From: an uncultured virus (IMG/VR IMGVR_UViG_3300044716_000940)
Lineage: Duplodnaviria; Heunggongvirae; Uroviricota; Caudoviricetes
Direction: 5' to 3' (one strand)
DNA length: 20,000 bases
Virus record (IMG/VR): IMGVR_UViG_3300044716_000940
Shown in pieces: positions 944-19,722 of this stretch. The notes below the pieces were generated by a model. That model was not told where the DNA came from. It ran no database searches and saw nothing but the letters and a program-made list of their open reading frames with translations. The stretch's first letter is position 1, and every line of letters starts with the position of its first letter. Made by a program: the position numbers and the translations under genes.

Positions 944-956
944 TAGGAGAAACGCT

Positions 957-1223
957 GTGGAAATTAAACATATTCACATTATGCCGTTTATTGAGAATGG
1001 TGAATTGGTCGTAGATTTAAATATTGATGGCCAAGAAGTTGCTCCTGTAGCTCAAAAGCTTGAGATGATATTCGAAGAGTATTTAGATTATCGCCGTAAT
1101 CCTCACGATAGTAATTTGGATTCACAATATCGAGAAGAAACTGTAAATCTAATCGCAACTTTACGCTACATTGCTAAACAGCTTGAAGTTGAGACTGATG
1201 GCATGAGAAGGGAACTGCATTGA
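957..1223 (+). CDS. Hypothetical phage protein (88 aa, probable GTG start)
   Basis: AGGAGA RBS upstream of GTG at 957; fills the gap between polymerase and exonuclease; 4-nt overlap with the next gene. Confidence 0.7.
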   Translation: MEIKHIHIMPFIENGELVVDLNIDGQEVAPVAQKLEMIFEEYLDYRRNPHDSNLDSQYREETVNLIATLRYIAKQLEVETDGMRRELH

Positions 1224-1951
1224 AACTCGCCATCGATACTGATATTATCTTATTTCAAGCCTCCTTTGGAGCGCAAAATGTGCTTGATTGGGGAGACGTA
1301 AAATCGGTTGACGCTGATATTACGAAAGCAAAGAACACTGTTCGCTCTACGATAAAAGAATACCAATCTTTTACTGGAGTTAAAGAGTTTGTCCTATGCT
1401 TATCTTCGCCATCAAACTTTCGTAAAACAGTCTGGAAAGATTATAAAGCTAACCGTGTTAATGGCGATCGACCTGTTCTATTAGAAGAATTAAAAGAATG
1501 GGTTAAAGAGTCTTATCCCACAACCACGATTGAGCATTTAGAGGCTGACGATGTGCTTGGCATTTTAGCTACGAAATATCCTGGAGAATATATCCACTGT
1601 AGTATGGATAAAGACCTTCAGTGTATTCCTGGTAAAATGATGCACGTTAAGAAAAATCACAAACACTTACTTCTGGATATTACTCCTGAAATGGCTAAAC
1701 GCTTTCATTATCTACAAACAATGACAGGCGATGGCTGTGATGGCGTTCCGGGTATTTATGGTGTAGGTCCTGCAAAGGCAAATAAATATATGGATAAGTA
1801 TGGCGTTAAGTGGTCAACCGTCTTAAAATGCTATGAAGATAATAATGTTCCAGCCGAAGAAGCCGTACGTAATGCTATAATGGTTAAGATTTTAGACCAT
1901 GCGCATTATAACGATGGCGATATTAGGATTTGGGAGCCGCCGAATGATTGA
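1220..1951 (+). CDS. 5'-3' exonuclease / flap endonuclease, T7 gp6-like
   Basis: LAIDTD, NFRK...YKANR, LEADDVLG, SMDKDL, GDGCDGVPGIYGVGP (H3TH) motifs; adjacent to the polymerase. Confidence 0.95.
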   Translation: MKLAIDTDIILFQASFGAQNVLDWGDVKSVDADITKAKNTVRSTIKEYQSFTGVKEFVLCLSSPSNFRKTVWKDYKANRVNGDRPVLLEELKEWVKESYPTTTIEHLEADDVLGILATKYPGEYIHCSMDKDLQCIPGKMMHVKKNHKHLLLDITPEMAKRFHYLQTMTGDGCDGVPGIYGVGPAKANKYMDKYGVKWSTVLKCYEDNNVPAEEAVRNAIMVKILDHAHYNDGDIRIWEPPND

Positions 1952-2201
1952 GCAAAGTATTACTGAATTGCTTTCATCATATAATAAAACGTTTCTGGAG
2001 GTGCATGGATACAGAGCACCGTATTTTCCACCGACAGTTACGCATGAATGGCTATTAGACCAGCTACACGCTCTTCAATGGTATGCTCGCTATGAGCATG
2101 CTTTGATGGGCACAAGAGCAGAAGAAGCTGAAAAGCGAAAGCCAAAAGAAGTTGTGCAAAAGAAACGTAAAGTAGAAAAGAAAGTAAACCCATTTATATA
2201 A
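1944..2201 (+). CDS. Hypothetical protein with Lys-rich C-terminus (85 aa)
   Basis: ATG at 1944 overlaps the exonuclease end and follows GGGAG; operon packing. Confidence 0.65.
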   Translation: MIEQSITELLSSYNKTFLEVHGYRAPYFPPTVTHEWLLDQLHALQWYARYEHALMGTRAEEAEKRKPKEVVQKKRKVEKKVNPFI

Positions 2202-2208
2202 GGATTTT

Positions 2209-3276
2209 ATGACTAAACCAAAGTTGTTGATAACCGGTATGAATAAATCGCAGTGCACTCCAAACTTTTGGAAGCGCCAGCAGATTAAACTTGCTACACA
2301 TTACTCTATTTTAGCAGCATTGCCCGATATGGGTTATGATGTTGAACAGAGGCCTGTAGAATTAGGCGAAGATTTATCGAAATATGACAAAGTTATTGTG
2401 TATATCCACTCGCCATCAGGCTTTGCTGGGTTTGTATATAACTCGTTGTATGCGATTGCTAAACGACCTGATTGCATTGTCGCCATTGATGATTGGCAAA
2501 CAGATAGCATCTTTAAAGGTGTGGCTGATTTAACCGAGGATGTGCGATTATTTAGGCAATATGTAGTAGATAGCCATGAATCGCTTCCACCAAATTGGGA
2601 GCAATACAAGCAAGTTATTCGTGATGGCGTAGCCGCTGTCGTCGGTAAAACGCATAAGATGCTCTTCCCAGTATTTGCTGGTGGAGAAGTGTCTAAGCTC
2701 TTACCTGTAGAATATAATAAAGACTTGCTCTTTGGTTATAATCCAAATCCATATCATTTAAACCGCAAGCCGGGTGCTTATGGTGATAGTATGGAACCTG
2801 ATGGGACCTCACACGTTCCGTTCGAGGCTAAAGAAAAGGTATTCAACTTCGCTTCTCTCGTGCAAGGCAAGACCGCTAAGTGGTTGAAAAAGCAAGAGAT
2901 TAAGAATTGGGATACGAAGTATTATGGCTCTCGTAAAGATGGCCAAGATCGCTTAACAGATGAAGAGATGTGTAAAGTATTTGCTCAACATTGGGCTAGC
3001 TTATTGCCGGGTTATTGGCATGCTGGATCCGGTTGGTGGAGATTCCGCCATTTGCAAGTAGCTGACGCTAACTCTATCTTAATTGGCGATCCAACTGAGC
3101 TTAAGATTTTATACCGCGATGAGTCGTTGTGTAATCTTAAAGCCTCTGATCTTGAAAGTATGGACTTAGCGCAGCTTACCGCCATCGCATTAGGCCAAAA
3201 AGAAGCGTTATATGCAAACCATCCATTAAGTAAAGAGACCGAGCGCTTAGAGCTCCGAGCAGCTCTTGAATCATAA
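2209..3276 (+). CDS. Putative GT-B glycosyltransferase, T4 beta-glucosyltransferase-like (possible DNA base modification)
   Basis: 355 aa; Rossmann-like N-terminus (LLITG...YDVE...YDKVIV...IVAIDD); C-terminal ASLLPGY...WWRFRHLQVADANSILIGD resembles the BGT/CgeB-type R-x-x-E/Q-x-x-x-x-x-x-hhh-D segment; located in the replication module; AAGGA RBS. Confidence 0.55.
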   Translation: MTKPKLLITGMNKSQCTPNFWKRQQIKLATHYSILAALPDMGYDVEQRPVELGEDLSKYDKVIVYIHSPSGFAGFVYNSLYAIAKRPDCIVAIDDWQTDSIFKGVADLTEDVRLFRQYVVDSHESLPPNWEQYKQVIRDGVAAVVGKTHKMLFPVFAGGEVSKLLPVEYNKDLLFGYNPNPYHLNRKPGAYGDSMEPDGTSHVPFEAKEKVFNFASLVQGKTAKWLKKQEIKNWDTKYYGSRKDGQDRLTDEEMCKVFAQHWASLLPGYWHAGSGWWRFRHLQVADANSILIGDPTELKILYRDESLCNLKASDLESMDLAQLTAIALGQKEALYANHPLSKETERLELRAALES

Positions 3277-3277
3277 C

Positions 3278-3401
3278 CAGGTTGACTAGATGGGCACCTA
3301 TCACTCTCAACGGCATTCCTTATAGTAACATATAAGCTATGCTATTGATGGCGACCAGGACCCATTTAAGAGAAATTCTCCTGGAAATTCAAGTGCACCT
3401 G
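3278..3401 (+). ncRNA. Candidate structured (pseudoknotted) intergenic RNA
   Basis: Nested stems 3278-82/3397-3401, 3290-94/3361-65, 3298-3303/3346-51, 3312-16/3339-43, 3319-24/3331-36, plus crossing pair CCAGGA 3355-60/TCCTGG 3379-84. Confidence 0.4.
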
Positions 3402-3455
3402 TAATGGGCTTTGCCCGTAGACCTCATAAATCAATATTTACAAGGAATAAATAAT

Positions 3456-3728
3456 ATGAATCAACCAACAGAACGCGAAGCGCTGCCACCAGAAGTAGTG
3501 GAAGCTGCTCGCAAATCGCTAGTGATTAGTCTGCCTGACGCATTAGCTGCTTTGTCAGCTTATGACTCAGCGTTTGTCCCTATCCTTACTGGTGCGGTTG
3601 CCGAAGCCGAGACGAACTTAAAACTTCGTGCTGCTTTAAATCGCTTGCTATTCTCAAGCCGTAATCAGACATTTGCTTATAGCTGCAAAGAAGAATTAGC
3701 GAAGTATAAGGAGAAACAGAATGGCTAA
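3456..3728 (+). CDS. Hypothetical protein (90 aa)
   Basis: AAGGA RBS before ATG 3456; overlaps the start of the next gene. Confidence 0.75.
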   Translation: MNQPTEREALPPEVVEAARKSLVISLPDALAALSAYDSAFVPILTGAVAEAETNLKLRAALNRLLFSSRNQTFAYSCKEELAKYKEKQNG

Positions 3729-4098
3729 GAAAAAGCCAATCACTAAAACCTATAAGACCATCACCGAAAATCCCGAAGTCTTTGATCCAGGCTATACGCT
3801 TGTCTCAGAGATTGTGGACAATCCTGACGGTTCTTCAACTATCCAACTCGAGTTTACTCAAGACCAAAAAGATATTCTATTTGACGTATGCCTTCGCAAC
3901 GGCTTAGTCAATGGTCTTAAAGCACTTGACGCGGACTCCGCTCATTATGCGAATTTGCTTGGCGCTGTTGCAGCAGCCAATCAGTTTGCAAAGCTAGCGA
4001 CCAAATGGGAGACATCTGACACAATGGACTGGTCTCCTAAGGTTTCTAAAGCACTCTCCAAGTTGAATGAAGCATTGGAGAAAATAGAGCGCTCATAA
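3721..4098 (+). CDS. Hypothetical protein (125 aa)
   Basis: AAGGAG RBS; operon packing. Confidence 0.8.
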   Translation: MAKKKPITKTYKTITENPEVFDPGYTLVSEIVDNPDGSSTIQLEFTQDQKDILFDVCLRNGLVNGLKALDADSAHYANLLGAVAAANQFAKLATKWETSDTMDWSPKVSKALSKLNEALEKIERS

Positions 4099-4108
4099 AG
4101 GAAATATT

Positions 4109-4609
4109 ATGCGAAGAAGTATCATTGCATTGCTAATGTCATTATCGATTTCATCTTCTGCCATCGCAGAGGAAGTGTTATTCAAACACAAAGTAGTAGA
4201 GTTTATTGAAAACACGTATAAAATCAGTAATGCCAAAACCATCGTTGATTATGTATTCGAAATAGCAGATCGAAAGAGGATTGACCCAACACTAGTTTTA
4301 GGTATCATCACCGTTGAGTCGAGATTCCAAACAAATGCGAGAAACCCGAGTGGTGCGACAGGCCTTATGCAGGTTTTATTGCCTATGCATTGCAAACGTT
4401 TTCCAGCCCCAACTCAAAGAGAATGTAAAGCATTAGCTCACGATCCATATCAAAACATCGATGCTGGAACGGACATTCTAATAGAGTTTAATGGCGACTT
4501 ACGTCGTTATTCTGGAGGAGCTACAGCATATAAAGCCAAAGTAACAAAGGCACAAGATGAATTTTATAAACTATATAAGGAAATAAACAATGGAGCAGGT
4601 TATTATTAA
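4109..4609 (+). CDS. SLT-family lytic transglycosylase with N-terminal signal peptide
   Basis: IDPTLVLGIITVESRF (catalytic Glu), GATGLMQV, DPYQNIDAGT, RRYSGG motifs; signal-like MRRSIIALLMSLSISSSAIA. Confidence 0.9.
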   Translation: MRRSIIALLMSLSISSSAIAEEVLFKHKVVEFIENTYKISNAKTIVDYVFEIADRKRIDPTLVLGIITVESRFQTNARNPSGATGLMQVLLPMHCKRFPAPTQRECKALAHDPYQNIDAGTDILIEFNGDLRRYSGGATAYKAKVTKAQDEFYKLYKEINNGAGYY

Positions 4610-4817
4610 ACACAGAGTCGAAGCTGATATCAATAATCCAAATTGGGTGTATATTCCATCGAACCAAACGAACGTTAAAGAGCGTTTCGAAGACGCAGGT
4701 CATAAATTTAAAGACGTAATGTTTCGTAAGGTCTATGATTTCACAGGCTTAGACTATTGGGCATGGCAAATTACACACTTAGAGGAAAAAGATGAGCGTT
4801 CCAAAGCAGCTGCTTGA
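4590..4817 (+). CDS. Hypothetical protein (75 aa)
   Basis: AAGGA RBS; overlaps neighbours in operon fashion. Confidence 0.7.
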   Translation: MEQVIIKHRVEADINNPNWVYIPSNQTNVKERFEDAGHKFKDVMFRKVYDFTGLDYWAWQITHLEEKDERSKAAA

Positions 4818-4956
4818 CGAGTACGAAGAATTCTTTATTCTACCAAACGTCGCTCTCTTGTTTAAGAAAGTGCCTAGTGCACAGACTTTACAAGAGCTGC
4901 GCGAGCTAATCGATGTATTAGAAGAAACAAATAAAGAATTTCCAATAGCATATTAA
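4792..4956 (+). CDS. Small hypothetical protein (54 aa, not in ORF track)
   Basis: GAGGA RBS, ATG 4792, MSVPKQLLDEYEEFF...FPIAY*; fills the gap. Confidence 0.6.
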   Translation: MSVPKQLLDEYEEFFILPNVALLFKKVPSAQTLQELRELIDVLEETNKEFPIAY

Positions 4957-4974
4957 ATTTTATAAGGAAATATT

Positions 4975-5445
4975 ATGACGTGTATTATTGGTGACGCAGA
5001 GCGTATGATATTAGTCTCAGATTCGCAAGTTTCTGATGAAGATTCAAGCACTAAATCATACAAATGTGAGAAGATATTTAAACTTAACGATGGCTCCTTA
5101 CTCGGAGTAGCGGGTGATATTCGCTCTGAAGAGAAGGTCATTGATTGGTTTAATAAAGGTTGTCCAAAAGGCGACAAACCAGAAATCAAAGAAGAGCATG
5201 ATTGTGATTTTATGCGACTTACTGAAGATGGTTTATTCTTATCTGATAAGAGTTTAGAATTTTGGCGAGTTAAATCTCACGATGGAATAGGAAGCGGACA
5301 AGCGATTGCGCTAGGAGCTATGCTCTTAGGCCATTCAGCTGAAGAAGCCGTATGGGCTGCTACGCAAATTGATATGCACACTGGCGGAAACGTTGTTGTG
5401 TATGAGATTGGTAAGCGACCAAAGATTTATCATAAAAAGAGCTAA
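4975..5445 (+). CDS. Proteasome-beta/HslV-like Ntn hydrolase (Thr nucleophile)
   Basis: M-T-C-I-I-G start (Thr1 after Met removal), SDSQ, conserved Lys in CEKIF, GVAG, GIGSG...ALGAM, DMHTGG motifs. Confidence 0.85.
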   Translation: MTCIIGDAERMILVSDSQVSDEDSSTKSYKCEKIFKLNDGSLLGVAGDIRSEEKVIDWFNKGCPKGDKPEIKEEHDCDFMRLTEDGLFLSDKSLEFWRVKSHDGIGSGQAIALGAMLLGHSAEEAVWAATQIDMHTGGNVVVYEIGKRPKIYHKKS

Positions 5446-5489
5446 TGGCGTTTGCCATACAGACTATAACCAACTAAGGAGTATTAAAT

Positions 5490-5762
5490 ATGTTTGATTT
5501 TTTCAACACAAAACAGAATTTCGAAACCGCAATGCGCGATATCGAAGCTCGCTTTGAAGCCGCCCTCGAAGGCTTTAAGCAAGCCCAAGTAATGCCAATC
5601 GTAACGCAAAGCGATGACTTAGTGACCATGACTTTTCGCGGTCCTAACGTTACCACAACCATCACCACTACACAGGTGAAAATGCCTGAAGTATTAAAGC
5701 AATTTGGCTTGGAAATCCCAACCGTTGCTAAAAAGAGTAGGGCTAAAAATGCCAAATCCTAA
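5490..5762 (+). CDS. Hypothetical protein (90 aa)
   Basis: TAAGGAG RBS. Confidence 0.75.
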   Translation: MFDFFNTKQNFETAMRDIEARFEAALEGFKQAQVMPIVTQSDDLVTMTFRGPNVTTTITTTQVKMPEVLKQFGLEIPTVAKKSRAKNAKS

Positions 5763-5856
5763 GATCGAAGATAAGTTTAGCGAGCGTCAGTTTTACGCGC
5801 TAAGCGTATTAGCCATTGGTCTGACGATTGTAGGCTTTTATTTATTATTTAGTTAA
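5749..5856 (+). CDS. Small single-TM protein (35 aa, not in ORF track)
   Basis: MPNPKIEDKFSERQFYALSVLAIGLTIVGFYLLFS*; overlaps the previous stop. Confidence 0.5.
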   Translation: MPNPKIEDKFSERQFYALSVLAIGLTIVGFYLLFS

Positions 5857-5858
5857 GT

Positions 5859-5899
5859 AATACACCGAGTCCATTCGCAAGAGTGGGCTCCAATGTATT
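5859..5899 (+). promoter_or_regulatory. Extended GNRA-capped hairpin (terminator or RNase III-type processing site)
   Basis: GAGTCCATTC-GCAA-GAGTGGGCTC 10-bp stem (2 G-U) plus lower stem AATACA/TGTATT, followed by a T-rich run. Confidence 0.5.
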
Positions 5900-5924
5900 T
5901 CTTTAAAAGCACTTGGAGATTATA

Positions 5925-6170
5925 ATGACAGTGAACTTTGCACGACTTAATTGCGAAAGTGGATGTTGCCTTGATAAGGTAAAGCATCTCTCTGAGCAAA
6001 TATTTAACCAGCAGGATGAGATGTATAACGCTCTTGCTGAAGAGAATATCGAGTTAGGTAATTTCGTAGTTGATGAGATTATGCCTTACTTAGAAGCACG
6101 CGCTCAGTCGCACGATCATAGAGCCCAAGATTTAATGGTCGCTTTAATGACCCTATTGAGAGGCGTATAA
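5925..6170 (+). CDS. Hypothetical protein (81 aa; CxxxCC near the N-terminus)
   Basis: GGAG RBS before ATG 5925; TAATG coupling to the desaturase. Confidence 0.7.
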   Translation: MTVNFARLNCESGCCLDKVKHLSEQIFNQQDEMYNALAEENIELGNFVVDEIMPYLEARAQSHDHRAQDLMVALMTLLRGV

Positions 6171-6874
6171 TGATTGAATTACTTTACTTACTGATAACAA
6201 CTCATATAACGATCGTCTGCGTAACTTTGTATTTACACAGAGGTCAGGCCCATAGAGGTTTTACGTTTAATCGGTATGTAGAGCACTTCATGCGATTTTG
6301 GCTATGGTTAACGACAGGTATGGTGACTAAAGAATGGGTCGCTATACACCGCAAACATCACAGCAAATGCGATAAGCAAGGCGATCCACATTCACCGCAT
6401 AATGAAGGCATTTGGAAGATTCTGTTTGGTGGCGCGTTTTACTACGCTAACGCCTCAACAGATAAGCAAATGGTAAACTCTTATGGTGTTGGAACGCCAG
6501 ACGATTGGATGGAACGCAACGTATATAGTAAATATCAGTTAGCAGGAGTAATGCTGCTGTTGGTTATCAATACACTCTTGTTCAATGGATGGGGCATAGT
6601 AATATGGCTTATTCAGATGGCATGGATTCCGTTCTGGGCTGCTGGCGTCGTGAACGGTCTTGGACATTACATTGGCTACCGCAATACTGACACAAAAGAT
6701 TACTCAACTAACTTGAGTCCTTTTGGAATTATTATTGGTGGCGAAGAGCTCCACAACAATCATCACGAAAACCCAGCAAATCCCAAGCTAAGCCGTAAAT
6801 GGTTTGAGTTTGATATTGGATGGATGTGGTATAAGATACTCAATCGATTTGGGTTGATGAAATTAAGGAATTAA
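6170..6874 (+). CDS. Membrane fatty-acid desaturase (delta-9/DesA-like), copy 1
   Basis: His boxes HRGQAH, HRKHH, GEELHNNHH; DPHSP; WFEFDIGW; hydrophobic TM segments. Confidence 0.95.
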   Translation: MIELLYLLITTHITIVCVTLYLHRGQAHRGFTFNRYVEHFMRFWLWLTTGMVTKEWVAIHRKHHSKCDKQGDPHSPHNEGIWKILFGGAFYYANASTDKQMVNSYGVGTPDDWMERNVYSKYQLAGVMLLLVINTLLFNGWGIVIWLIQMAWIPFWAAGVVNGLGHYIGYRNTDTKDYSTNLSPFGIIIGGEELHNNHHENPANPKLSRKWFEFDIGWMWYKILNRFGLMKLRN

Positions 6875-6875
6875 C

Positions 6876-7259
6876 ATGGCTTATTCAGACAAAGTAATAG
6901 ACCATTACGAAAACCCACGCAACGTAGGCTCATTCGATAAAGGCGATCCAACGATCGGCACTGGAATGGTTGGCGCTCCTGCTTGTGGTGACGTAATGAA
7001 ACTCCAAATAAAGGTAGAAGATGGTATTATTAGAGATGCTCGTTTCAAGACATATGGATGCGGTTCAGCAATTGCGTCAAGCTCGCTCGTCACGGAGTGG
7101 GTCAAAGGTAAAACGTTGGCTGAAGCTGGCGCTATTAAGAACAGTGAGATTGCAGAAGAACTGGCCTTACCACCTGTAAAAATCCATTGCTCAATCTTAG
7201 CAGAAGACGCTGTGAAAGCAGCAATACACGATTACGAGGTAAAATGCAAATGCTCATAG
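6876..7259 (+). CDS. iscU: Fe-S cluster scaffold IscU
   Basis: MAYSDKVIDHYENPRNVG, GAPACGDVM, GCGSAIASSS, LPPVKIHCS (HscA-binding LPPVK; three conserved Cys). Confidence 0.98.
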   Translation: MAYSDKVIDHYENPRNVGSFDKGDPTIGTGMVGAPACGDVMKLQIKVEDGIIRDARFKTYGCGSAIASSSLVTEWVKGKTLAEAGAIKNSEIAEELALPPVKIHCSILAEDAVKAAIHDYEVKCKCS

Positions 7260-7555
7260 TAACAGATAGCGCAGCAAATCAAATTAGCGAAGTGCTTACC
7301 GACGGCGGTAAATACGTTAGAGCTTTTATAGAAGGTGGCGGTTGCTCAGGATTTAATTATGGGTTTAGCATTGAAGATGAGAAAGAAGACGATGACTTTG
7401 TTATCGGCCAACTCATTGTAGACTCTATGAGTATGCAATACTTTACCGGTGCCACGATCGATTACATTAGTGACCGATTAAAAGGCTCGCAGTTTACCAT
7501 CAATAATCCTAACGCCAAGTCTACATGTGGCTGCGGGAGCTCATTCGCAGTATAA
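7250..7555 (+). CDS. erpA: A-type Fe-S carrier (ErpA/IscA family)
   Basis: GGGCSGFNYGF, VDSMSMQY, NPNAKSTCGCGSSF; GAGGT RBS; start at 7250 or 7244. Confidence 0.92.
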   Translation: MLIVTDSAANQISEVLTDGGKYVRAFIEGGGCSGFNYGFSIEDEKEDDDFVIGQLIVDSMSMQYFTGATIDYISDRLKGSQFTINNPNAKSTCGCGSSFAV

Positions 7556-7571
7556 ATAATATAAGGACAAA

Positions 7572-7973
7572 ATGAAAACACAAACCTATATAGAGATTGC
7601 TAATATTATCTCTAAAGAAAGTAAAGCGGTTAACGCTAAAGTAGGAGCCATTGCGGTTGTAGATGGACGTATTGTAGCATGTGGCTATAATGGCACGCCA
7701 CCTGGATTTAATAATAAATGTGAGGATGAAAATGGAGTTACTAAAAAAGAAGTTATTCATGCGGAATCTAACATTGTCGCATTTGCTAGCAAGCATGGTG
7801 TCAGCCTTCGCGGTGCTGATGTGTATTGCACTCTATCTCCTTGCGTTCCCTGTGCTGCTCTGCTTAGCGCTGCTGGAGTCTCTCGTTACTACTACCGGGA
7901 CGCTTATCGTGATAGCACTGGGCTGCATTTACTTGCTGACCTTGGTATAGAAGCCATTCATGTGGATGGTTAA
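7572..7973 (+). CDS. dCMP deaminase (ComEB/T4 cd family)
   Basis: VGA...GYNGTPPG, HAE and TLSPCVPC zinc motifs. Confidence 0.95.
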   Translation: MKTQTYIEIANIISKESKAVNAKVGAIAVVDGRIVACGYNGTPPGFNNKCEDENGVTKKEVIHAESNIVAFASKHGVSLRGADVYCTLSPCVPCAALLSAAGVSRYYYRDAYRDSTGLHLLADLGIEAIHVDG

Positions 7974-8124
7974 GAAGTTTTTGTTAGAGCTGTTGGAGTC
8001 TATAATACTCTCCATTATTCTTATAGCGCTGGTCGCTGGAGGATTATGGATTGCATTTAGTGTAGCAATATTTATTATGGATGTTCTTCCAACCCTTAAT
8101 TTTTTGGAGCACTTTGACAGATGA
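7966..8124 (+). CDS. Small membrane protein (52 aa, not in ORF track)
   Basis: MVKKFLLELLESIILSIILIALVAGGLWIAFSVAIFIMDV...; overlapping start/stop junctions. Confidence 0.55.
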   Translation: MVKKFLLELLESIILSIILIALVAGGLWIAFSVAIFIMDVLPTLNFLEHFDR

Positions 8125-8246
8125 AAAACAATTGGAAGTGGGGCAGCGATGCCTGTAACGAACGCCGACTATATCGCATTAAAGGCACAATGATTATTAT
8201 TGGAGCAGCGATAGTCGCAACATTTATAATTGCAGTACTAAGTTAA
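8121..8246 (+). CDS. Small membrane protein (41 aa, not in ORF track)
   Basis: ATGA overlap; C-terminal TM segment MIIIGAAIVATFIIAVLS. Confidence 0.55.
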   Translation: MKNNWKWGSDACNERRLYRIKGTMIIIGAAIVATFIIAVLS

Positions 8247-8254
8247 GGAATAAT

Positions 8255-8860
8255 ATGAAAGTCTATATCTCTAAGTATAAATCAAATTGGATTTCACCTT
8301 ACACCATTAAAGAGAAATTCTTCTTTTGGAAAAAGGACTACGACGCCTATGAGAATGAGCCACCACAATGGCTTAGCTCAATTTGCAATGGAGTCCACGC
8401 TGTGCGCAATAAGCTTGGACCACGTATTGAATACGTCAAGATTGACCGATACGATACATGGAGTATGGACCATACATTAGCACTTATCGTTCTACCGATG
8501 CTAAAGCAGCTACGTCTTGAAAAGCATGGAATTCCAGGCTCATTTATCAAGGCCGGTGATGATAGCAATAATGCGTTTGAGCAAGCTGAGCTTGAGTGGA
8601 ACGCCGTAATGGACGAAATGATTTGGGCGTTTGAAGAGCATTGCAAAGACGACGGTGAATCGCAGTTCTATAGCGGTGAGCACGATCGCCTTACAGTCCC
8701 AGTAGAATGGGATGATAAAGGTAAAGCAACACTCTTTGAATGGAAGAAAGGCCCAAACGACACCTTTAAAATCGATATGAAAGGCCTTAAAGCCTATCAA
8801 AAGCGTAAGCAAAAAGGATTTGAGTTGTTTGGCAAATACTATCAGAATCTGTGGGACTAA
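8255..8860 (+). CDS. Hypothetical phage protein (201 aa)
   Basis: TAAGGA RBS; IDRYDTWSMDHTLALIVLPMLKQL...HGIP...MDEMIWAFE...GFELFGKYYQNLWD resembles a widespread uncharacterised phage family. Confidence 0.85.
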   Translation: MKVYISKYKSNWISPYTIKEKFFFWKKDYDAYENEPPQWLSSICNGVHAVRNKLGPRIEYVKIDRYDTWSMDHTLALIVLPMLKQLRLEKHGIPGSFIKAGDDSNNAFEQAELEWNAVMDEMIWAFEEHCKDDGESQFYSGEHDRLTVPVEWDDKGKATLFEWKKGPNDTFKIDMKGLKAYQKRKQKGFELFGKYYQNLWD

Positions 8861-9241
8861 ATGGCAACAACTAAATTCACCTTTGATACGGCGTATCTTA
8901 GGATTCTCTATGAAATGCTACACTCTACTGTAATGGTGCCGCTTGATATTCGCTTACCGCCTGAATGGTTAATCCAATTTGTGATTACCAAAGACGATGA
9001 AGCTTATGGTTGGGTAAATCCTGAAGATGACTTTAACGAGCCATTCGGCGAATATACCGTCGACATCAGTAAGGTTAAAAACGCCACATACAAAGACTTA
9101 ATAGAAACATTATTACACGAAATGATCCACATCCACGCACACCATCTAGGTTTATCCGATTGGGACGAGCATGGCTTAGAATCGCCTTTCGATAAGACGA
9201 GAATAAGAGTGGAGCAATTTACAGGATTATCGATATCTTAA
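8861..9241 (+). CDS. SprT-like zinc metallopeptidase domain protein
   Basis: ETLLHEMIH (HExxH) followed by HG...F. Confidence 0.75.
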   Translation: MATTKFTFDTAYLRILYEMLHSTVMVPLDIRLPPEWLIQFVITKDDEAYGWVNPEDDFNEPFGEYTVDISKVKNATYKDLIETLLHEMIHIHAHHLGLSDWDEHGLESPFDKTRIRVEQFTGLSIS

Positions 9242-9253
9242 TGGAGAATAGAT

Positions 9254-9322
9254 ATGCTATGGTTTGTAGTTATCGCTCTCATAATAATTATCTTAATGTA
9301 TTTAGAATTAGGCGATGATTGA
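9254..9322 (+). CDS. Tiny hydrophobic peptide (22 aa)
   Basis: GGAG RBS; MLWFVVIALIIIILMYLELGDD*. Confidence 0.4.
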   Translation: MLWFVVIALIIIILMYLELGDD

Positions 9323-9331
9323 AAGGAAAAA

Positions 9332-9799
9332 ATGACAGATAAAAATAAACATGACGCTACGCTTGCAAACCTTGAGAGTGCCTTAGCTGGCGAATCAATG
9401 GCTCATATTAAATACCGCTACTTTGCTAAGCTCGCTAGAGCTGAAGGCTTTGAAGAGGTAGCAAAACATTTTGAGCACACGGCAGATCAAGAAATCTTAC
9501 ATGCTTGGGGCCATTTGGAATTACTGATTGGTAAGCCATCGACTCAACGTTGTTTAGAGATGGCCATCGAAGGTGAGACATATGAGTTCGAAGAAATGTA
9601 TCCACGCTTTGAGATTCAAGCGCGTTTAGATGGTGCAAGCCATTGGATGGCAGAGATCAGAGATCAGATTAGCGAAAGCAAAGAGCACGCACAGCAATTT
9701 CAAGATATGCTTGTGAAAGCTGAGAAACGATTTGCAGCGCTAAAGAGGGTTGAAGAGCGCCATGCTAACGCTTACACTAAAGTATTGGAGAAACTATAA
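9332..9799 (+). CDS. Rubrerythrin (ferritin-like di-iron domain, no fused rubredoxin)
   Basis: [32 protein letters not shown] di-iron ligands. Confidence 0.93.
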
Positions 9800-9930
9800 T
9801 GGAATATCAAGAGATGCAGCAGTGCATTGTCTGTGGGTATCTGATTAAAGATGAAGAGTTTAAAACTCTGCCCGACGACTTTGAGTGCCCTGACTGCGGC
9901 GTAGGTAAAGACGAATTCGAATTAGTTTAA
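9799..9930 (+). CDS. Rubredoxin (43 aa, not in ORF track)
   Basis: [43 protein letters not shown]: CxxCG...LPDDFxCPxCG; TAATG coupling to rubrerythrin. Confidence 0.93.
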
Positions 9931-9941
9931 AGGAGTAGTGT

Positions 9942-10118
9942 ATGAATATCATTGTTGAACGATTAATGTCACAAGGTTTTGAACGTATGGAAGCTATCAA
10001 GGAATTAAAAGTCCAGCGCAATATGGCAAAACGAGATATCATACCGATTGAAGAATGCTTAATGGATATGGGTTGCCCGCCAACCGAAGATTATTATTAC
10101 GCATTTAAAGAAGAATGA
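9942..10118 (+). CDS. Small hypothetical protein (58 aa, not in ORF track)
   Basis: AAGGAG RBS; MNIIVERLMSQGFERMEAIKEL...YAFKEE*. Confidence 0.65.
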   Translation: MNIIVERLMSQGFERMEAIKELKVQRNMAKRDIIPIEECLMDMGCPPTEDYYYAFKEE

Positions 10119-10906
10119 ATTATTGGTAGGTCCATTGGGCGGCATTCAATGGAGGCAACCATAGGCAGACCCACAAACTCTTGTAATGCCTACTGATAAT
10201 CGTCTTGGACACGCAGACGTTAAAGTGAAGTGCGCGTAGGTGGAAAGCCTGCTGGTCAAAAGTGGAGCCAGGTCCTACTGCGACGAGAGTATTCCTGAGA
10301 ACGCTGAGCAACGATAATGCTCCACGGTCAATGGCTATATGCGTTGGAAGCGTAATAGCAGATACCACAAAGGCCATCTTACAACGGAGCAGTAGCAAGT
10401 ATCCTTCTTATGGAAGGGAATGTGGTGTTCGACTCCCACTGGCAACAAGGCAATGGCTGAAGTCTTTTGAGGATTGCGGATTCGCGGTCGAAGAAGCCAC
10501 CAACACGGCTCGCTCCTCTACGTCGCAAGACGCACGAGTAAGTTATCGTAGTAAATTAGTATTGGCTCGCTGGCGAAAACGTAAAGCCAACCTTGTCCGA
10601 AGCGGAAAGCCTACAGTTCTAGACACCTGTTAGGTAGCAAGAGGATAGTAAACCAATACGAAACAATGGTCGCCCACCACCATTACCAAAGGTGGGCACT
10701 AATGAATACGCGTAAAGACACATCAACCCAATCTATCTATGGGAAATTATCCTAGCCAACTTCCACCTCTAACGAGGCATCGATCAGCTGATTACTTATC
10801 GAATAAAGGCTACCGCTAGGAGAAGCGATGCAATCGGCTCGAAAGAGTAACCTTAAACGTTCACGACCATACGCTCTTAAACGTATACGATAGAGTATTC
10901 ATTAGT
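10119..10906 (+). ncRNA. Candidate large structured ncRNA or array of structured RNAs upstream of the tRNA
   Basis: No credible ORF in an otherwise gene-dense strand; back-to-back closing stems 10119-30/10189-200, 10262-68/10319-25, 10559-65/10653-59, 10672-78/10691-97, 10698-709/10895-906; GNRA tetraloops; T-loop-like hairpins. Confidence 0.6.
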
Positions 10907-10912
10907 AACTAT

Positions 10913-10987
10913 TTCTCGATAGTGTTAACGGTAGCACGTCTGTCTCCAAAACAGAAGGTTGCGGTTCGAATCCGTATCGGGATGCCA
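10913..10987 (+). tRNA. trnW: tRNA-Trp (CCA)
   Basis: Acceptor TTCTCGA/TCGGGAT, D-arm GTGT...GCAC, anticodon stem TCTGT/ACAGA with loop CTCCAAA, T-arm TGCGG-TTCGAAT-CCGTA, G73, encoded CCA. Confidence 0.93.
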
Positions 10988-11006
10988 CAATTATAAAGGA
11001 AAATAT

Positions 11007-11711
11007 ATGGCCATTGTTTTATACACGATCTTTGTTACCCAACTTAGTGCAGTGTTTATGAGTATTTACGTGCATAGAAGTATTGCACACAAAGGAGTTG
11101 AGTTTCATCCGGTTGTAAGTCATATAATCAGAACATGGTTATGGTTGACAGAAGGCGTCATCATTAAAGAGTGGGCAGAGATGCACAGGTGGCATCACAA
11201 GTTTGCTGACACGTCTAGAGACCCACACCTATCGTTAAAGAATGGATTATGGCGAGCAGCATGGCTTAACTTTTGGCAGCACGTTGTAAGTAAGTTTTCA
11301 AAGCGTAAAGAGTCTCGCGATCGCTACGACCCAGCTGAAGATTGGGCAGATAAGAATATCTATAACAAACACTATCTCGTAGGTTTATTCCTAATGCTAG
11401 CGATTGATGTAGCCTTATTTCAATGGTGGGGCATAGTCGTATGGGTTATACAGATGGCATGGAGTCCAGTTGCCGTAAGTATCGGAGCGAATGTGCTTGG
11501 CCATTCAATAGGCTATCGAAACTATAACTCAAAAGACAATAGCCATAACTATTTCCCATTTGGTTTAATGGCAGGCGGAGATGAGTTTCACAACAACCAC
11601 CATTACTCACCTGGAAATCCAAAGTATAGCCAAAGATGGTTTGAGTTCGATATTGGTTGGGGATTTATTACCTTACTTAGATGGGCTGGATTAGCAAAGC
11701 TAAAAAGATAA
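11007..11711 (+). CDS. Membrane fatty-acid desaturase, copy 2
   Basis: AAAGGA RBS before ATG 11007; His boxes HRSIAH, HRWHH, GDEFHNNHH; WFEFDIGW. Confidence 0.93.
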   Translation: MAIVLYTIFVTQLSAVFMSIYVHRSIAHKGVEFHPVVSHIIRTWLWLTEGVIIKEWAEMHRWHHKFADTSRDPHLSLKNGLWRAAWLNFWQHVVSKFSKRKESRDRYDPAEDWADKNIYNKHYLVGLFLMLAIDVALFQWWGIVVWVIQMAWSPVAVSIGANVLGHSIGYRNYNSKDNSHNYFPFGLMAGGDEFHNNHHYSPGNPKYSQRWFEFDIGWGFITLLRWAGLAKLKR

Positions 11712-11713
11712 AC

Positions 11714-11745
11714 ATTGTAAACTTTTCACGAAAGATTGTAAACTT
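11714..11745. repeat. 11-bp direct repeat ATTGTAAACTT x2 (21-bp period)
   Basis: Exact copies at 11714-11724 and 11735-11745, abutting the ATG at 11746. Confidence 0.6.
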
Positions 11746-11946
11746 ATGACAACATTAACTTTAAACAGAAAGCAAGTGGATAAGCTTGTTGAAATTGTAA
11801 CGCACTTCCATGAGATAGAATTCTTTACTATTGATACTGAGAATAAAACCGGTATTGGCGACGAAATAACGGTGAGCTTTCAGTTGTTCGAAGACTCTTT
11901 CGATAACGATGCAAAGATAAATATAACGGACGTTGAATCATGGTAA
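11746..11946 (+). CDS. Hypothetical phage protein (66 aa)
   Basis: ORF in operon; ends ITDVESW. Confidence 0.7.
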   Translation: MTTLTLNRKQVDKLVEIVTHFHEIEFFTIDTENKTGIGDEITVSFQLFEDSFDNDAKINITDVESW

Positions 11947-12161
11947 CCGACCTTGAATTAAAAGAGCTCCAAGAAGAGCATGCCTTTATGAAGGATACCT
12001 TAGCTAAGCTTTACGGTATAGATAGAATGTTTATCTGTGGCGGCAGCAAGGAATTAGGAGAAGATAATCTACCTGATATGATTATGGTATGCCCAGCCTT
12101 TGGCGCTGATGGCTTTGCAATCTATAAAAAGCATCGAGACTACGACGCACCGGGATATTAA
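11940..12161 (+). CDS. Hypothetical phage protein (73 aa)
   Basis: FICGG...LPDMIMVCPAFGADG; overlapping junction. Confidence 0.7.
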   Translation: MVTDLELKELQEEHAFMKDTLAKLYGIDRMFICGGSKELGEDNLPDMIMVCPAFGADGFAIYKKHRDYDAPGY

Positions 12162-12162
12162 C

Positions 12163-12657
12163 ATGATAGAATATAAACACAACATAATTTCTGCAGAAGA
12201 TTGTAGAAAGATTATTGAGATCGCCGAAGGATTGCCTAAGTGGAATAGAGTATACCAAGGCTATTCTTCTGTAGACATCATTAAGTGTTATATTAAACCG
12301 CATATTGGTGAGATTCTCGAGCGACTTGAGATGGATATACCAGAAAATTGTAGCGTAGAGGTTCTTAAATATAGAGCGGGCTCGTCGAATGGTATTCATT
12401 TTGATGGTGAAGGCGACCATACATTATCTCAAACATCAACTGTCCAAGCTGAGTGGAAGCAAACAGGTATTGTCTTGCTAAACGACGGCTTCGACGGTGG
12501 TGAGCTATTCTTTCCTAACTTGGCAATGGGCTTTGACAAAACCTCAAAAGGTAGTTTAGTATTATTTACTGCTGGAAATAGCAAAGACTCACTCGCACAT
12601 GGTGTTAATAAAGTATTAAACGGCACGCGATACACTTTAGTATTTAGATATATTTAA
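12163..12657 (+). CDS. 2OG-Fe(II) dioxygenase (prolyl-4-hydroxylase-like)
   Basis: LKY...HFD, IVLLNDGFDGGELFF, GSLVLF, HGVNKVLNGTRYTL (HxD...H...R); start at ATG 12163. Confidence 0.92.
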   Translation: MIEYKHNIISAEDCRKIIEIAEGLPKWNRVYQGYSSVDIIKCYIKPHIGEILERLEMDIPENCSVEVLKYRAGSSNGIHFDGEGDHTLSQTSTVQAEWKQTGIVLLNDGFDGGELFFPNLAMGFDKTSKGSLVLFTAGNSKDSLAHGVNKVLNGTRYTLVFRYI

Positions 12658-12667
12658 TGGAGATATT

Positions 12668-13126
12668 ATGAGACAGGAATTAGACGAGGCGTTATGCGCT
12701 AAGTATCCTAAGATGCTACGCGATCGACATAAAGACAAGCGCGATACAGCGATGTGCTGGGGATTCGAGTGTGGTGATGGTTGGTATAATCTATTAGACG
12801 CTTTAATGGCAAACATCCAAGGTCATATAGATTGGAGAGAGCGCCAACGAGCGTATGCCATAGAGCAAAAGAGCAAGAAGATTCCTGATGAAGTGCCACA
12901 AGTCGTTTTGTCTCAAGTCAAAGAGAAGTTTGGCACGCTAAGCTTCTACTATAGCGGCGGCGATGAGCGCATATTCGGTATGGTCATGTTGGCAGAAACT
13001 ATTAGTGGTCAAACTTGCGAATGGTGTGGTAGCCCAGGTCAACGCCGTAATGGCGGTTGGATTAGGACGCTATGCGATAAACATGAAGAAGCACATCAAC
13101 AAGGAGAGTATGATGAATCGGCTTAA
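12668..13126 (+). CDS. Hypothetical phage protein (CGDGW / KEKFG / CxxC...C type)
   Basis: GFECGDGW, QVKEKFGTLSFYY, CEWCG...LCDKH possible metal site; GGAG RBS. Confidence 0.85.
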   Translation: MRQELDEALCAKYPKMLRDRHKDKRDTAMCWGFECGDGWYNLLDALMANIQGHIDWRERQRAYAIEQKSKKIPDEVPQVVLSQVKEKFGTLSFYYSGGDERIFGMVMLAETISGQTCEWCGSPGQRRNGGWIRTLCDKHEEAHQQGEYDESA

Positions 13127-13343
13127 CGATGATTTGATTTATAGACTACGCAAGCGAGCCGATATTAGGCGCCAGATTCCAAGCCGCAAGTCGGTGCAAA
13201 ACAATGAGCCTGATCGCATTGCTGATCTCTTAGAAGAGGCTGCAGATGCTATTGATCGGTTGGAGATGGTTATTATCTCTTATGAGAGCCATGATAAGGA
13301 TAGAGTGGCACAATATATTAAACAAATAAAAGGATTATTATGA
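13113..13343 (+). CDS. Hypothetical phage protein (76 aa)
   Basis: AAGGAG RBS at 13101; LIYRLRKRADIRRQIPSRKSV...DRIADLLEEAA. Confidence 0.75.
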   Translation: MNRLNDDLIYRLRKRADIRRQIPSRKSVQNNEPDRIADLLEEAADAIDRLEMVIISYESHDKDRVAQYIKQIKGLL

Positions 13344-13678
13344 GCGATTATACACCAGACAGGTGGGAAGTAGTAGAGATACAAAGCGATGGGCACGACA
13401 CATTGCGCAAGATTTTAGGAAGCTGGTATGGTGGTTACGCTAGCTCAGACTCTTGGCGCTTTAGCTCTGGCATTACTCGCGTTACGGATAAAGATACGTA
13501 CTGGGAAGTAGAGAATTATTCTGGAAGTATTTACACATGCTATAAAGAGTCGCAAGGAATGAGTGCGTATACTGCGAGCGTCTTTAATAGTATGGCCGAA
13601 AAGGCTAAAGAAGTTGGAGCATCACTAACTATAGTTGATATTGTTGATATTCAGAAACCTGTGATAGGATACTTATGA
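13340..13678 (+). CDS. Hypothetical phage protein (112 aa)
   Basis: YTPDRW...GSWYGGY...SWRFSSGI...SGSIYTC; ATGA overlap. Confidence 0.8.
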   Translation: MSDYTPDRWEVVEIQSDGHDTLRKILGSWYGGYASSDSWRFSSGITRVTDKDTYWEVENYSGSIYTCYKESQGMSAYTASVFNSMAEKAKEVGASLTIVDIVDIQKPVIGYL

Positions 13679-13833
13679 TAACCCAAACTAAAGAAGAGTT
13701 AGACGCTGCGTTTAAGAGCGCAGTGGACCAGTACTTTCAACTACAGCGTGACTATGCTTTTCTAAAAGCGCAGCGTGATAGGCTTCAGCGAGAGAATGAC
13801 GACCTAAAGAAGTTGATTGGTGTTTATGTATGA
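13675..13833 (+). CDS. Small coiled-coil protein (52 aa, not in ORF track)
   Basis: ATGA overlaps at both ends; MITQTKEELDAAF...QRENDDLKKLIGVYV*. Confidence 0.65.
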   Translation: MITQTKEELDAAFKSAVDQYFQLQRDYAFLKAQRDRLQRENDDLKKLIGVYV

Positions 13834-13973
13834 GCGATATGTCCCAGCGTAGGATAGCTATCTGTGCTGCCTGTCCTGAATATTCGTTTGTAGGGCTATG
13901 TAAGAAGTGTGGGTGTATGATGGCTATTAAGACTCATATGGTCACGGCTAAATGCCCGCTTAAGAAGTGGTAA
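13830..13973 (+). CDS. Cys-rich peptide, DUF6171-like (47 aa, not in ORF track)
   Basis: RRIAICAACP...CKKCGCMMAIKT...CPLKKW pattern. Confidence 0.75.
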   Translation: MSDMSQRRIAICAACPEYSFVGLCKKCGCMMAIKTHMVTAKCPLKKW

Positions 13974-18756: not shown

Positions 18757-19144
18757 ATCTAAATACTCCTGTTAGACGCGTGCGCCAATTGATGTGAGAC
18801 AAGTCCTCAATACAGGACATGCGACCTTTGAGACTGTGGAGAAACTCCGAACCGTTCAACATAATACCGCAATGAATCTCTTGACCCATAATGCGGAACG
18901 TGACTATGTCACCATGTTGTGGCACTTCGACTTTCGTCCAAGAGGCGCCAAGGCCATGCTGTGCAGACTTAATCGCCAGCTCGGCGACTGCTTCATTATC
19001 TAAACTTGAATACATATATTGTGGCAACTCTTTATGCAAGATTTCGCGAGAATATAAGCGCGCTATGCCGTAGCAGTCCGCCGCCTCATAACTCTCACCA
19101 CCAACCGTATAAGGAATTCCTATGAAACGATTTATCGATACCAT
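18749..19144 (-). CDS. NlpC/P60 tail assembly protein (gpK-like)
   Basis: IGIPY...GG...DCYG, GDIV, HCGI, FLHS (Cys-His-His); typical tail-tip position. Confidence 0.9.
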   Translation of the reverse strand: MVSINRFIGIPYTVGGESYEAADCYGIARLYSREILHKELPQYMYSSLDNEAVAELAIKSAQHGLGASWTKVEVPQHGDIVTFRIMGQEIHCGIMLNGSEFLHSLKGRMSCIEDLSHINWRTRLTGVFRYG

Positions 19145-19668
19145 ATTCTACCTTTGACAAAGCCTTCAGGCTGAGTCTTGCTACGGCGATTGATTGAGCC
19201 ATTATTCCACCAAATCGTGCCTTGCAAAAACTCGCTAACCTTCTGTTTCGCAGCGTCAGTATGTTTTCTACCTTTATTTGTCTTACCACCAATACTTCCA
19301 GCATAAGCCTGATGCTCAGTGGTCCGCAGTGCCGCTAAATGGCCTGACTCAACGTTACGTCTACCTTGAATTTGTGCCTTTAGTTGGCGCAACTTTTTAC
19401 CTTGTAGAGTTTGACCTGACATCATTGCCGCAGCATGGACATCCTTTGGATGCCGAGTAATTTTAGCACGTAAGACATGGATTAGTCGATGCCATCTATA
19501 TGGCAGCCAAACTAAATTCTCTTTAGTGTTATTACCGTTTGCATGGCGAGGAATAATATGGTGATGCTCAAAATCTTCGCCCGGTTTATTCTGTTGGTAA
19601 GGGTGTTTACCATGTAATTCTTGAAAGTGCATAATAATTTTATCATGCCTATTTTGAAGGATGCTCAT
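19132..19668 (-). CDS. Free-standing HNH homing endonuclease with NUMOD3-like motif
   Basis: EHHHIIPRHANGNNTKENLVWLPYRWHRLIH (HNH); NKGRKHTDAAKQKVS (NUMOD3-like); WWNNG...PEGFVKGR; AAGGAG RBS before ATG 19668. Confidence 0.9.
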   Translation of the reverse strand: MSILQNRHDKIIMHFQELHGKHPYQQNKPGEDFEHHHIIPRHANGNNTKENLVWLPYRWHRLIHVLRAKITRHPKDVHAAAMMSGQTLQGKKLRQLKAQIQGRRNVESGHLAALRTTEHQAYAGSIGGKTNKGRKHTDAAKQKVSEFLQGTIWWNNGSINRRSKTQPEGFVKGRIWYR

Positions 19669-19722
19669 CCTAACTCCTTGTAAATAATTTACCATAGCTC
19701 TCTTGTGAAGAGCTACAGTCAA

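Follow-up and report, generated by a model that had tools for sequence, protein, structure and literature searches.

The transfer RNA (tRNA) cluster of phage T4 also yields stable small non-tRNA RNAs, which share a tRNA precursor and are released by tRNA-processing enzymes. Larger RNAs are described near phage tRNA genes as well. GOLLD is a large phage RNA near tRNAs with a conserved 3' part and a less conserved 5' part (Weinberg et al. 2009, via bioRxiv 10.1101/2024.12.08.627333), and the same preprint portrays ROOL as a large, abundant RNA of phages and prophages that is often found near tRNA islands (bioRxiv 10.1101/2024.12.08.627333). Here we describe a gap of 794 nucleotides (nt) between genes (positions 10119-10912, + strand) in a 20,000-nt stretch of the uncultured virus IMGVR_UViG_3300044716_000940, which we refer to as the window. 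The gap lies directly before a tRNA-Trp gene. Our analyses make it probable that this is a transcribed non-coding locus of a siphophage, built as a + strand chain of separately evolving folded RNA units and not as one indivisible giant RNA. Its products are most likely stable RNAs that are processed from a tRNA-containing transcript and belong to uncatalogued families.

The locus shares with GOLLD a length of about 0.8 kilobases (kb), a phage origin, a position next to a tRNA, occurrence in lake metagenomes, many tetraloops and a conserved 3' part with a less conserved 5' part. Context features of this kind are common to more than one family and therefore do not decide membership. The GOLLD model of Rfam is not matched at E up to 10, however, and the units of the window locus are separable. 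The locus resembles ROOL in size and location, but the window does not match the ROOL model in Rfam either. Scans of the window against Rfam 15 (cmscan; gathering threshold and E up to 10), run on stretches of 20 kb, 1.2 kb, 421 nt and 161 nt, returned tRNA only, with no match to GOLLD, ROOL, a ribozyme, transfer-messenger RNA (tmRNA) or any other family. The preliminary description of the locus had been unable to assign it to a named family, and these scans agree. In 14 related loci, Rfam gave tRNAs and weak matches below threshold.

A mosaic of separable RNA units

The locus consists of three kinds of unit: a 5' unit (module A, a two-hairpin motif and module C), a hypervariable middle made of swappable hairpins, and a 3' domain of about 245 nt. 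Module A (10119-10200) is a stem-closed domain of about 80 nt whose closing helix pairs 10119-10130 with 10189-10200. The two-hairpin motif (10201-10252) has stems 10201-10205/10215-10219 and 10236-10240/10248-10252 and is followed by module C (10253-10370), a conserved domain with hairpins 10261-10265/10275-10279, GAGCA/UGCUC and GCUAU..AUAGC. The middle (10371-10660) contains a GNRA hairpin cassette at 10509-10538, with an inner hairpin (10521-10524/10529-10532) closed by the loop GCAA, a stem 10559-10565/10653-10659 that encloses an insert of about 115 nt, and a hairpin at 10610-10634. The 3' domain (10661-10906) opens with hairpin 10672-10678/10691-10697 and continues with a helix of 12 base pairs (bp), 10698-10709/10895-10906, around a multi-helix core. 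Within this core lies an invariant stretch of 52 nt (10819-10870) that includes a GAAA hairpin (10838-10847).

Relatives were collected by pattern scans, by a scan anchored on a 201-amino-acid (aa) protein, from which the best 80 loci of 597 relatives were taken, and by nhmmer over 229 loci. The entire locus is present in just two other viral contigs, L009, where tRNA-Trp follows, and L042, where tRNA-Thr and then tRNA-Trp follow. Module C is nearly identical in all three, and a variant from an RNA library (X20) has other sequence 5' of 10301. Module A carries a 49-nt insertion within the domain in L009 and is swapped for an unrelated sequence of similar length in L042. The middle is 29% identical to its counterpart in L009, against 89-95% for the RNA modules that flank it.

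The 3' domain reaches further, being present in L009, L042, L150, L151 and the fragment L235, at 72-95% identity across relatives. In the more distant relatives L150 and L151, as in the fragment, the whole non-coding region is made up of the last ~245 nt preceded by the GNRA cassette; positions 10546-10660 are absent from L150 and L151. The 3' domain of these two contigs stands after a homologue of the 58-aa open reading frame (ORF) that precedes the gap in the window, directly before the ribosome-binding site of a protein gene, and no tRNA is found there. Its identity between the window and L151 is 72%, compared with 53% and 65% for the flanking genes. The conserved RNA units are better conserved than the flanking protein genes, and the locus is a mosaic whose units occur independently in other phages.

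Several short sequences recur in the locus. The loop of hairpin 10610-10634 carries the 9-mer GUUCUAGAC (10616-10624), which includes the palindrome UCUAGA (10618-10623) and is kept in L009 (about 1608-1616) amid otherwise unlike sequence. Its placement in a hairpin loop of the window makes GUUCUAGAC a possible kissing-loop site. When folded on its own, the corresponding segment of L009 prefers another structure over the hairpin needed to display the palindrome. In the invariant 3' core, CUUAAACGU is found twice, at 10851-10859 and 10876-10884, 25 nt apart, and UUAAAG also appears in the linker of the two-hairpin motif.

Searches for further copies were largely negative. A megablast of 5 kb against the phage records in GenBank gave no match, and the nearest related genome record (G001) is without the gap region. 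Pattern scans for the 3' core returned four viral contigs, all already in the relative set, and two metagenome records, namely the L009 contig and a fragment. Among 185,579 representative genomes the core pattern matched four times, a relaxed motif pattern once and the strict motif pattern not at all; these matches were set aside as chance, their flanks being unrelated and the motif match lying inside a 302-aa ORF. In 813 kb of related lake-phage DNA from 82 sources, a covariance model of the motif (R1) recovered only the window copy, the next best hit having E = 1, and no extra copies were found elsewhere on four related contigs. A literature search with the letters of the motif gave one unrelated primer match, with only a limited search for descriptions under other names.

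Helices retained under sequence change

Comparison among relatives indicates covariation in at least five helices, which, together with the missing coding signature reported below, upholds the proposal in the preliminary description of a structured non-coding RNA locus. In the helix that closes the 3' domain (10698-10709/10895-10906), two-sided changes affect 7 of the 12 pairs, and all 12 remain intact. An alignment of the 3' domain (A5; five sequences, two effective lineages) has 59 predicted pairs that are 98.6% paired and nine two-sided changes, seven of which fall in this helix. When partners were slid by 1 to 3 columns, zero or one two-sided pair was left, and none of 500 shuffles reached the covariation score. 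Seven of the ten helices in the domain never vary and are informative neither way. The hairpin of the GNRA cassette (10521-10532) reads CGUC-GCAA-GACG in the window and CAUC-GAAA-GAUG in L042, L150 and L151, with G10522-C10531 replaced by A-U. In hairpin 10261-10265/10275-10279, L042 and L009 differ from the window by two-sided changes at two pairs, and L009 also has one mismatch. The closing stem of module A has 12 pairs, two of them G.U, one of which L009 converts to A-U; in L042, the unrelated letters of module A still fold with a closing stem, CUAGCA/UGCUAG. Where the covarying helices contain wobble pairs (G.U or U.G), these fit the + strand, on which the tRNA and the flanking genes are also encoded.

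The five stems listed in the preliminary description are all present as written, and two of them gain comparative support: 10119-10130/10189-10200 and, strongly, 10698-10709/10895-10906. Stems 10672-10678/10691-10697 and 10559-10565/10653-10659 are invariant wherever they are present, which leaves no possible covariation signal. Stem 10262-10268/10319-10325 was rejected, as one-sided changes break two of its seven pairs in L042 and three of seven in L009; the local hairpin 10261-10265/10275-10279 covaries in its place. The preliminary description also named two GNRA-capped hairpins, of which CGTC-GCAA-GACG (10521-10532) covaries and CTC-GAAA-GAG (10838-10847) is present and invariant among relatives. 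The T-loop-like arms that it mentioned drew no tRNA or tmRNA call from ARAGORN at the 90% or 80% threshold.

Other structural candidates were tried and dropped. An array of tRNA or tmRNA remnants or pseudo-tRNAs was rejected, as ARAGORN calls only tRNA-Trp at its default, 90% and 80% thresholds and Rfam gives no tmRNA; at a 70% threshold six low-grade calls are scattered across both strands. A sponge of the CsrB/RsmZ type for CsrA/RsmA was rejected on the count of GGA, 14 against 12.2 +/- 2.6 in shuffles, with 297 of 1000 shuffles reaching 14. A long-range pairing between GUGAA in the motif linker and UUCAC in the 3' core was given up, being 5 bp only between units that both occur apart.

A gap without coding signature

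The gap begins 1 base past the stop codon at 10116-10118, which ends the 58-aa ORF (9942-10118), the gene directly 5' of the gap. Genes on the + strand are densely packed from 41 to 13973, and the gap is the sole long break in this block. Its GC content rises to a maximum of 0.51, against a background of about 0.41 nearby. The preliminary description had pointed to a long non-coding gap ending 6 nt before the tRNA, and this holds, with no family-supported ORF between 10119 and 10912. Two frames were considered, a 123-aa frame at 10262-10633 (+) and a frame at 10120-10398 (-), and neither has a family match in PHROG or Pfam.

The near-identical relative L042 shares with the window an open 123-aa frame. 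This frame is lost in L009, where the longest + strand ORF of the region has 59 aa, despite 89-95% identity of the conserved modules in that contig. Between the window and L042, the 372 nt of the frame differ at 10 bases, distributed 3/2/5 by codon position and altering five residues; 6-10% of bases differ in the two flanking genes, distributed 0/1/10 and 4/2/40. The bias towards third positions is strong in the flanking genes and missing in the frame, so that the codon-level conservation which the preliminary description had raised as a counter-argument is not found. The variant RNA-library contig has six single-base insertions or deletions inside the frame. The gap is non-coding.

The two-hairpin motif

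In the window, the first hairpin of the 56-nt motif carries the loop UGGACACGC, the invariant linker (10220-10235) begins UUAAAGUGAAGUG, and the second hairpin carries the loop UGGAA(A)G. A blastn search with the gap matched 41 records, all of them Pseudomonas phages, over only 47 nt (10199-10245) at 87% identity. IMG/VR has 75 contigs with the motif, and a pattern that leaves the stem letters free finds 76. Most look like Pseudomonas D3-like prophages, where the motif usually stands ahead of tRNA clusters; the others are the two window relatives and L102, in which the motif occurs alone between a gene for a single-stranded-DNA-binding protein and an Arc-like gene.

There are 24 distinct 66-nt versions of the motif, of which 15 were aligned, taking in most of the versions with differences inside the 58-nt motif. 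L073, in which hairpin 2 is partly deleted, was left out, and most other omitted versions differ only downstream. Both hairpins covary in the 15 aligned versions: two-sided changes occur at 5 of 10 stem pairs, pairing holds in 98.7% of cells, and none of 500 shuffles reaches the score. Both loops (UGGACACGC, 9 nt, and UGGAA.., 7 nt) and a 13-nt linker are invariant. The U.G pairs of the motif are compatible with the + strand only. The phages that bear it differ in base composition, with DNA of 42% against about 62% GC. Invariant unpaired parts on covarying stems, kept across such differing GC, suggest contact with a conserved partner, or a catalytic core. This pattern suggests that the two-hairpin unit may bind a conserved host component or ligand and act in trans; candidate partners would include a host enzyme, the polymerase, the ribosome and a small ligand.

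The surroundings of the motif in Pseudomonas phages are themselves variable. In phages D3 and Marin it heads an ORF-poor stretch of about 300 nt that lies downstream of ninG-like genes and reaches tRNA-Gly-Asn-Thr, and this stretch, too, is mosaic, with stem-closed inserts that are optional. Some variants have a terminator-like hairpin and U run immediately after the motif. At 9 of 75 Pseudomonas-type loci a hammerhead-like core stands 107 nt downstream; at L013:1080-1124 (-) and the eight other loci it consists of CUGAUGAG, a stem, CGAAAC and a short hairpin. A 32-aa hydrophobic ORF lies just 5' of the motif at L002:1324-1422 (orf85 of D3) and also in Marin, and is missing in other Pseudomonas versions. 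In the Marin record (L001; OR683406), the deposited tRNA coordinates are about 345 nt upstream of the tRNA-Gly, tRNA-Asn and tRNA-Thr found by ARAGORN and Rfam, and the annotation seems to be shifted.

Evidence from RNA libraries

The stretch or a part of it was found in 20 public runs, most of them labelled lake-water metagenomes and six recorded as RNA. Fourteen DNA runs contain 58-97% of the words sampled from the stretch. Four RNA runs were compared in the form of assembled contigs: X15, X16 and X17 (2017 lake metatranscriptomes) and X20 (2025, freshwater). X15-X17 each hold one contig of 328-423 nt, at a depth of 13-15, covering 10199 to 10451-10546. These contigs have 71-75 extra 5' letters, the last 30 of which are module A of the L042 type, so that in the L042-type version they start 12-16 nt past the upstream stop codon. 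The variant contig in X20 (345 nt) spans 10301-10579 at a depth of 78.6. For pieces of the flanking genes the depth is at most 2.2 in X15-X17, and X20 has them at 3.5-7.5. A single piece covers the 3' domain (10717-10867, depth 2), and the depth of the 5' part exceeds that of the 3' part about six-fold. The contigs pass uncut through the two-hairpin motif.

Contaminating DNA would give even cover of the phage; it therefore seems that the RNA part accumulates, above all its 5' ~430 nt. Accumulation of the 5' part above the neighbouring genes in lake RNA libraries is a hint, not proof. The stretch 10644-10911 is without cover in X16, X17 and X20, which proves nothing because these are contigs only.

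Proposed processing of the locus and competing explanations

The preliminary description had left the choice between one large RNA and an array of small RNAs processed from the tRNA transcript. Three observations favour an array of modules over a single indivisible RNA: L150 and L151 have the 3' domain by itself, L102 and the Pseudomonas phages have the motif by itself, and RNA-library cover is far deeper over the 5' part than over the 3' part. Taken together, the earlier observations are partly confirmed and their interpretation is supported. In the route we propose, the units would be co-transcribed with the upstream small ORFs and tRNA-Trp, a cut by RNase P at the 5' end of the tRNA, 6 nt past the last helix, would set the 3' end of the RNA, and additional cuts would free a stable 5' RNA of about 430 nt. 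The released products may then act in trans during infection. The stable non-tRNA species of T4 are released by the same route as is proposed for these RNA ends, although they are much shorter.

A number of results weigh against a processed chain of units. The minimum free energy is ordinary when compared with dinucleotide shuffles, with z-scores from 20 shuffles per strand of -0.31 (+) and -0.90 (-), a result that the preliminary description had itself listed as adverse. The case consequently rests on comparative evidence, which we consider to outweigh the ordinary folding energy. Only five contigs hold any part of the large RNA, in two or three effective lineages, so that most predicted helices are invariant and carry no covariation signal. 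A promoter and terminator scan gave no convincing site of either kind bounding the locus: a promoter-like site is absent at its 5' edge, the nearest on the + strand lying at 9771-9800 ahead of the small ORFs, and no terminator-like site on the + strand was found within or after the locus. One read-length piece bridges 10455-10605 and another covers 10717-10867 (depth 2), and the whole stretch could be one transcript. The contigs give neither strand nor true ends and one depth value each, and X15-X17 possibly come from one campaign.

The locus could instead encode a single ornate RNA of about 0.8 kb of the GOLLD or ROOL kind, a self-assembling multimer (for example through the palindromic UCUAGA loop) that serves as a cage or scaffold near phage tRNAs. 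Size, phage origin and the position beside a tRNA all agree with this, as do several GNRA loops and the RNA-library piece that bridges 10455-10605, and a conserved 3' part with a variable 5' part and middle fits what has been published on GOLLD. The conserved palindromic loop is the only hint of a multimer, however, and the hairpin that displays it is not the favoured fold of the isolated segment in L009. No family model matches at E up to 10, even in short stretches, the units are found separately in other phages, and the 5' and 3' parts differ about six-fold in RNA-library depth; on balance we regard a single large RNA as unlikely. We give a similarly low chance to a cis-acting leader, in which the motif modifies the polymerase or senses a ligand to allow read-through to the tRNA and downstream genes, the other hairpins guiding RNase cuts. 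Such a role would suit the Pseudomonas phages, where ninG-like genes precede the motif and a tRNA cluster and later genes come after it, and where the intrinsic-terminator-like hairpin with its U run directly follows it in some variants. The put RNA of HK022 is a phage element that needs no phage protein to work; it measures about 70 nt and combines two long stems with a triplex (PMC9378689). Both it and the motif have two hairpins, and some motif copies precede terminator-like sites; the two are likened by layout, and the motif hairpins have 5 bp against the long stems of put. In the window the expected + strand terminator-like site is missing, the contexts downstream of the motif differ widely (a terminator, tRNAs, a protein gene, the interior of a long RNA), and the high steady-state level in RNA libraries better fits a stable product.

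A self-cleaving cassette, with the two-hairpin motif or the 3' domain cutting the transcript, would account for covarying stems with invariant loops, which are typical of ribozyme cores. The hammerhead-like core of the nine Pseudomonas-type loci partially matches the Rfam model HH9 (18 bits, E 0.098), and the twister-sister model, at its positions 31-47, aligns with hairpin 2 of the Pseudomonas version (L013:1181-1197; 14.9 bits, E 2.7). This hairpin, GCCGG-UGGAAGC-CCGGC, has a loop that fits G-UGNAAGY-C of stem-loop 4 (SL4) as described for twister-sister (RF02681; PMC5660989). Both scores fall far short of the gathering scores (52 and 34), though, and neither match lies in the window. In the window the loop ends differently (UGGAAAG) and there is no twister-sister match, P1, L1 and P2 of that ribozyme were not found, and the Rfam scans of the window detected no other ribozyme and no hammerhead core of the form CUGANGA...GAAA with three stems. 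The RNA-library contigs also run uncut across the motif, and we judge self-cleavage very unlikely. The last alternative, that there is no functional RNA here and the gap holds a protein gene (10262-10633, or 10120-10398 on the - strand), decayed tRNA genes or junk, could appeal to the frame left open in the window and L042, to the unexceptional folding energy and to the known decay of phage tRNA clusters. It is already largely refuted by the loss of the frame in L009 despite 89-95% DNA identity in the conserved modules, by the missing third-position bias and family matches, by the six single-base indels in the variant RNA-library contig, by the lack of pseudo-tRNA calls from ARAGORN at thresholds of 80-90% and by the conserved units surpassing the flanking genes in conservation, and we consider it barely credible. 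A chain of separately evolving RNA units is the reading we retain. A bolder version of it, that the motif is a new catalytic, ligand-binding or polymerase-binding class common to phages of unrelated hosts and, with the 3' domain, forms a particle that oligomerises by the palindromic loop, a third RNA-only assembly beside GOLLD and ROOL, is speculative and in our estimate quite unlikely.

Genome surroundings

The tRNA-Trp (CCA) gene (10913-10987, +) was called by ARAGORN, scores 53.4 bits with the Rfam tRNA model and starts 6 nt past the closing helix of the 3' domain. It has a U.U mismatch at the top of the acceptor stem and an encoded CCA end. The gene is 100% identical in L009, and in L042 a tRNA-Thr is inserted between the RNA locus and tRNA-Trp. 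Directly 3' of tRNA-Trp in L009 (1996-2063) there is a weak tRNA-like element with the T-loop GGUUCGAAUCC, called by ARAGORN at the 80% threshold only.

By family matches, the window is from a lytic-type siphophage that encodes DNA polymerase I, an exonuclease, dCMP deaminase, a NifU-like protein and an HslV-like peptidase, and also rubrerythrin, two fatty-acid desaturases, a central tail fibre and minor tail proteins. The desaturase genes (6170-6874 and 11007-11711) are paralogous and belong to the same PHROG, with Pfam FA_desaturase confirmed for the second. Together with the rubrerythrin, NifU-like and HslV-like genes nearby, they make up an auxiliary metabolic gene set in a lake phage. A homing-endonuclease-like gene (phrog_655; 19132-19722, - strand) adjoins the tail genes.

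Conclusions

RNAs like GOLLD and ROOL are abundant near phage tRNA genes, and their function is still obscure. The locus described here adds uncatalogued families to the structured phage RNAs that lie beside tRNA genes, and it shows that a tRNA-adjacent RNA region can be a mosaic of portable units and not a single molecule. Its most useful handle is the two-hairpin unit, which is short and has strictly conserved loops. Although the lake phage has no known host, the motif is also carried by cultivable Pseudomonas phages such as D3, in which it is accessible to genetics and biochemistry.

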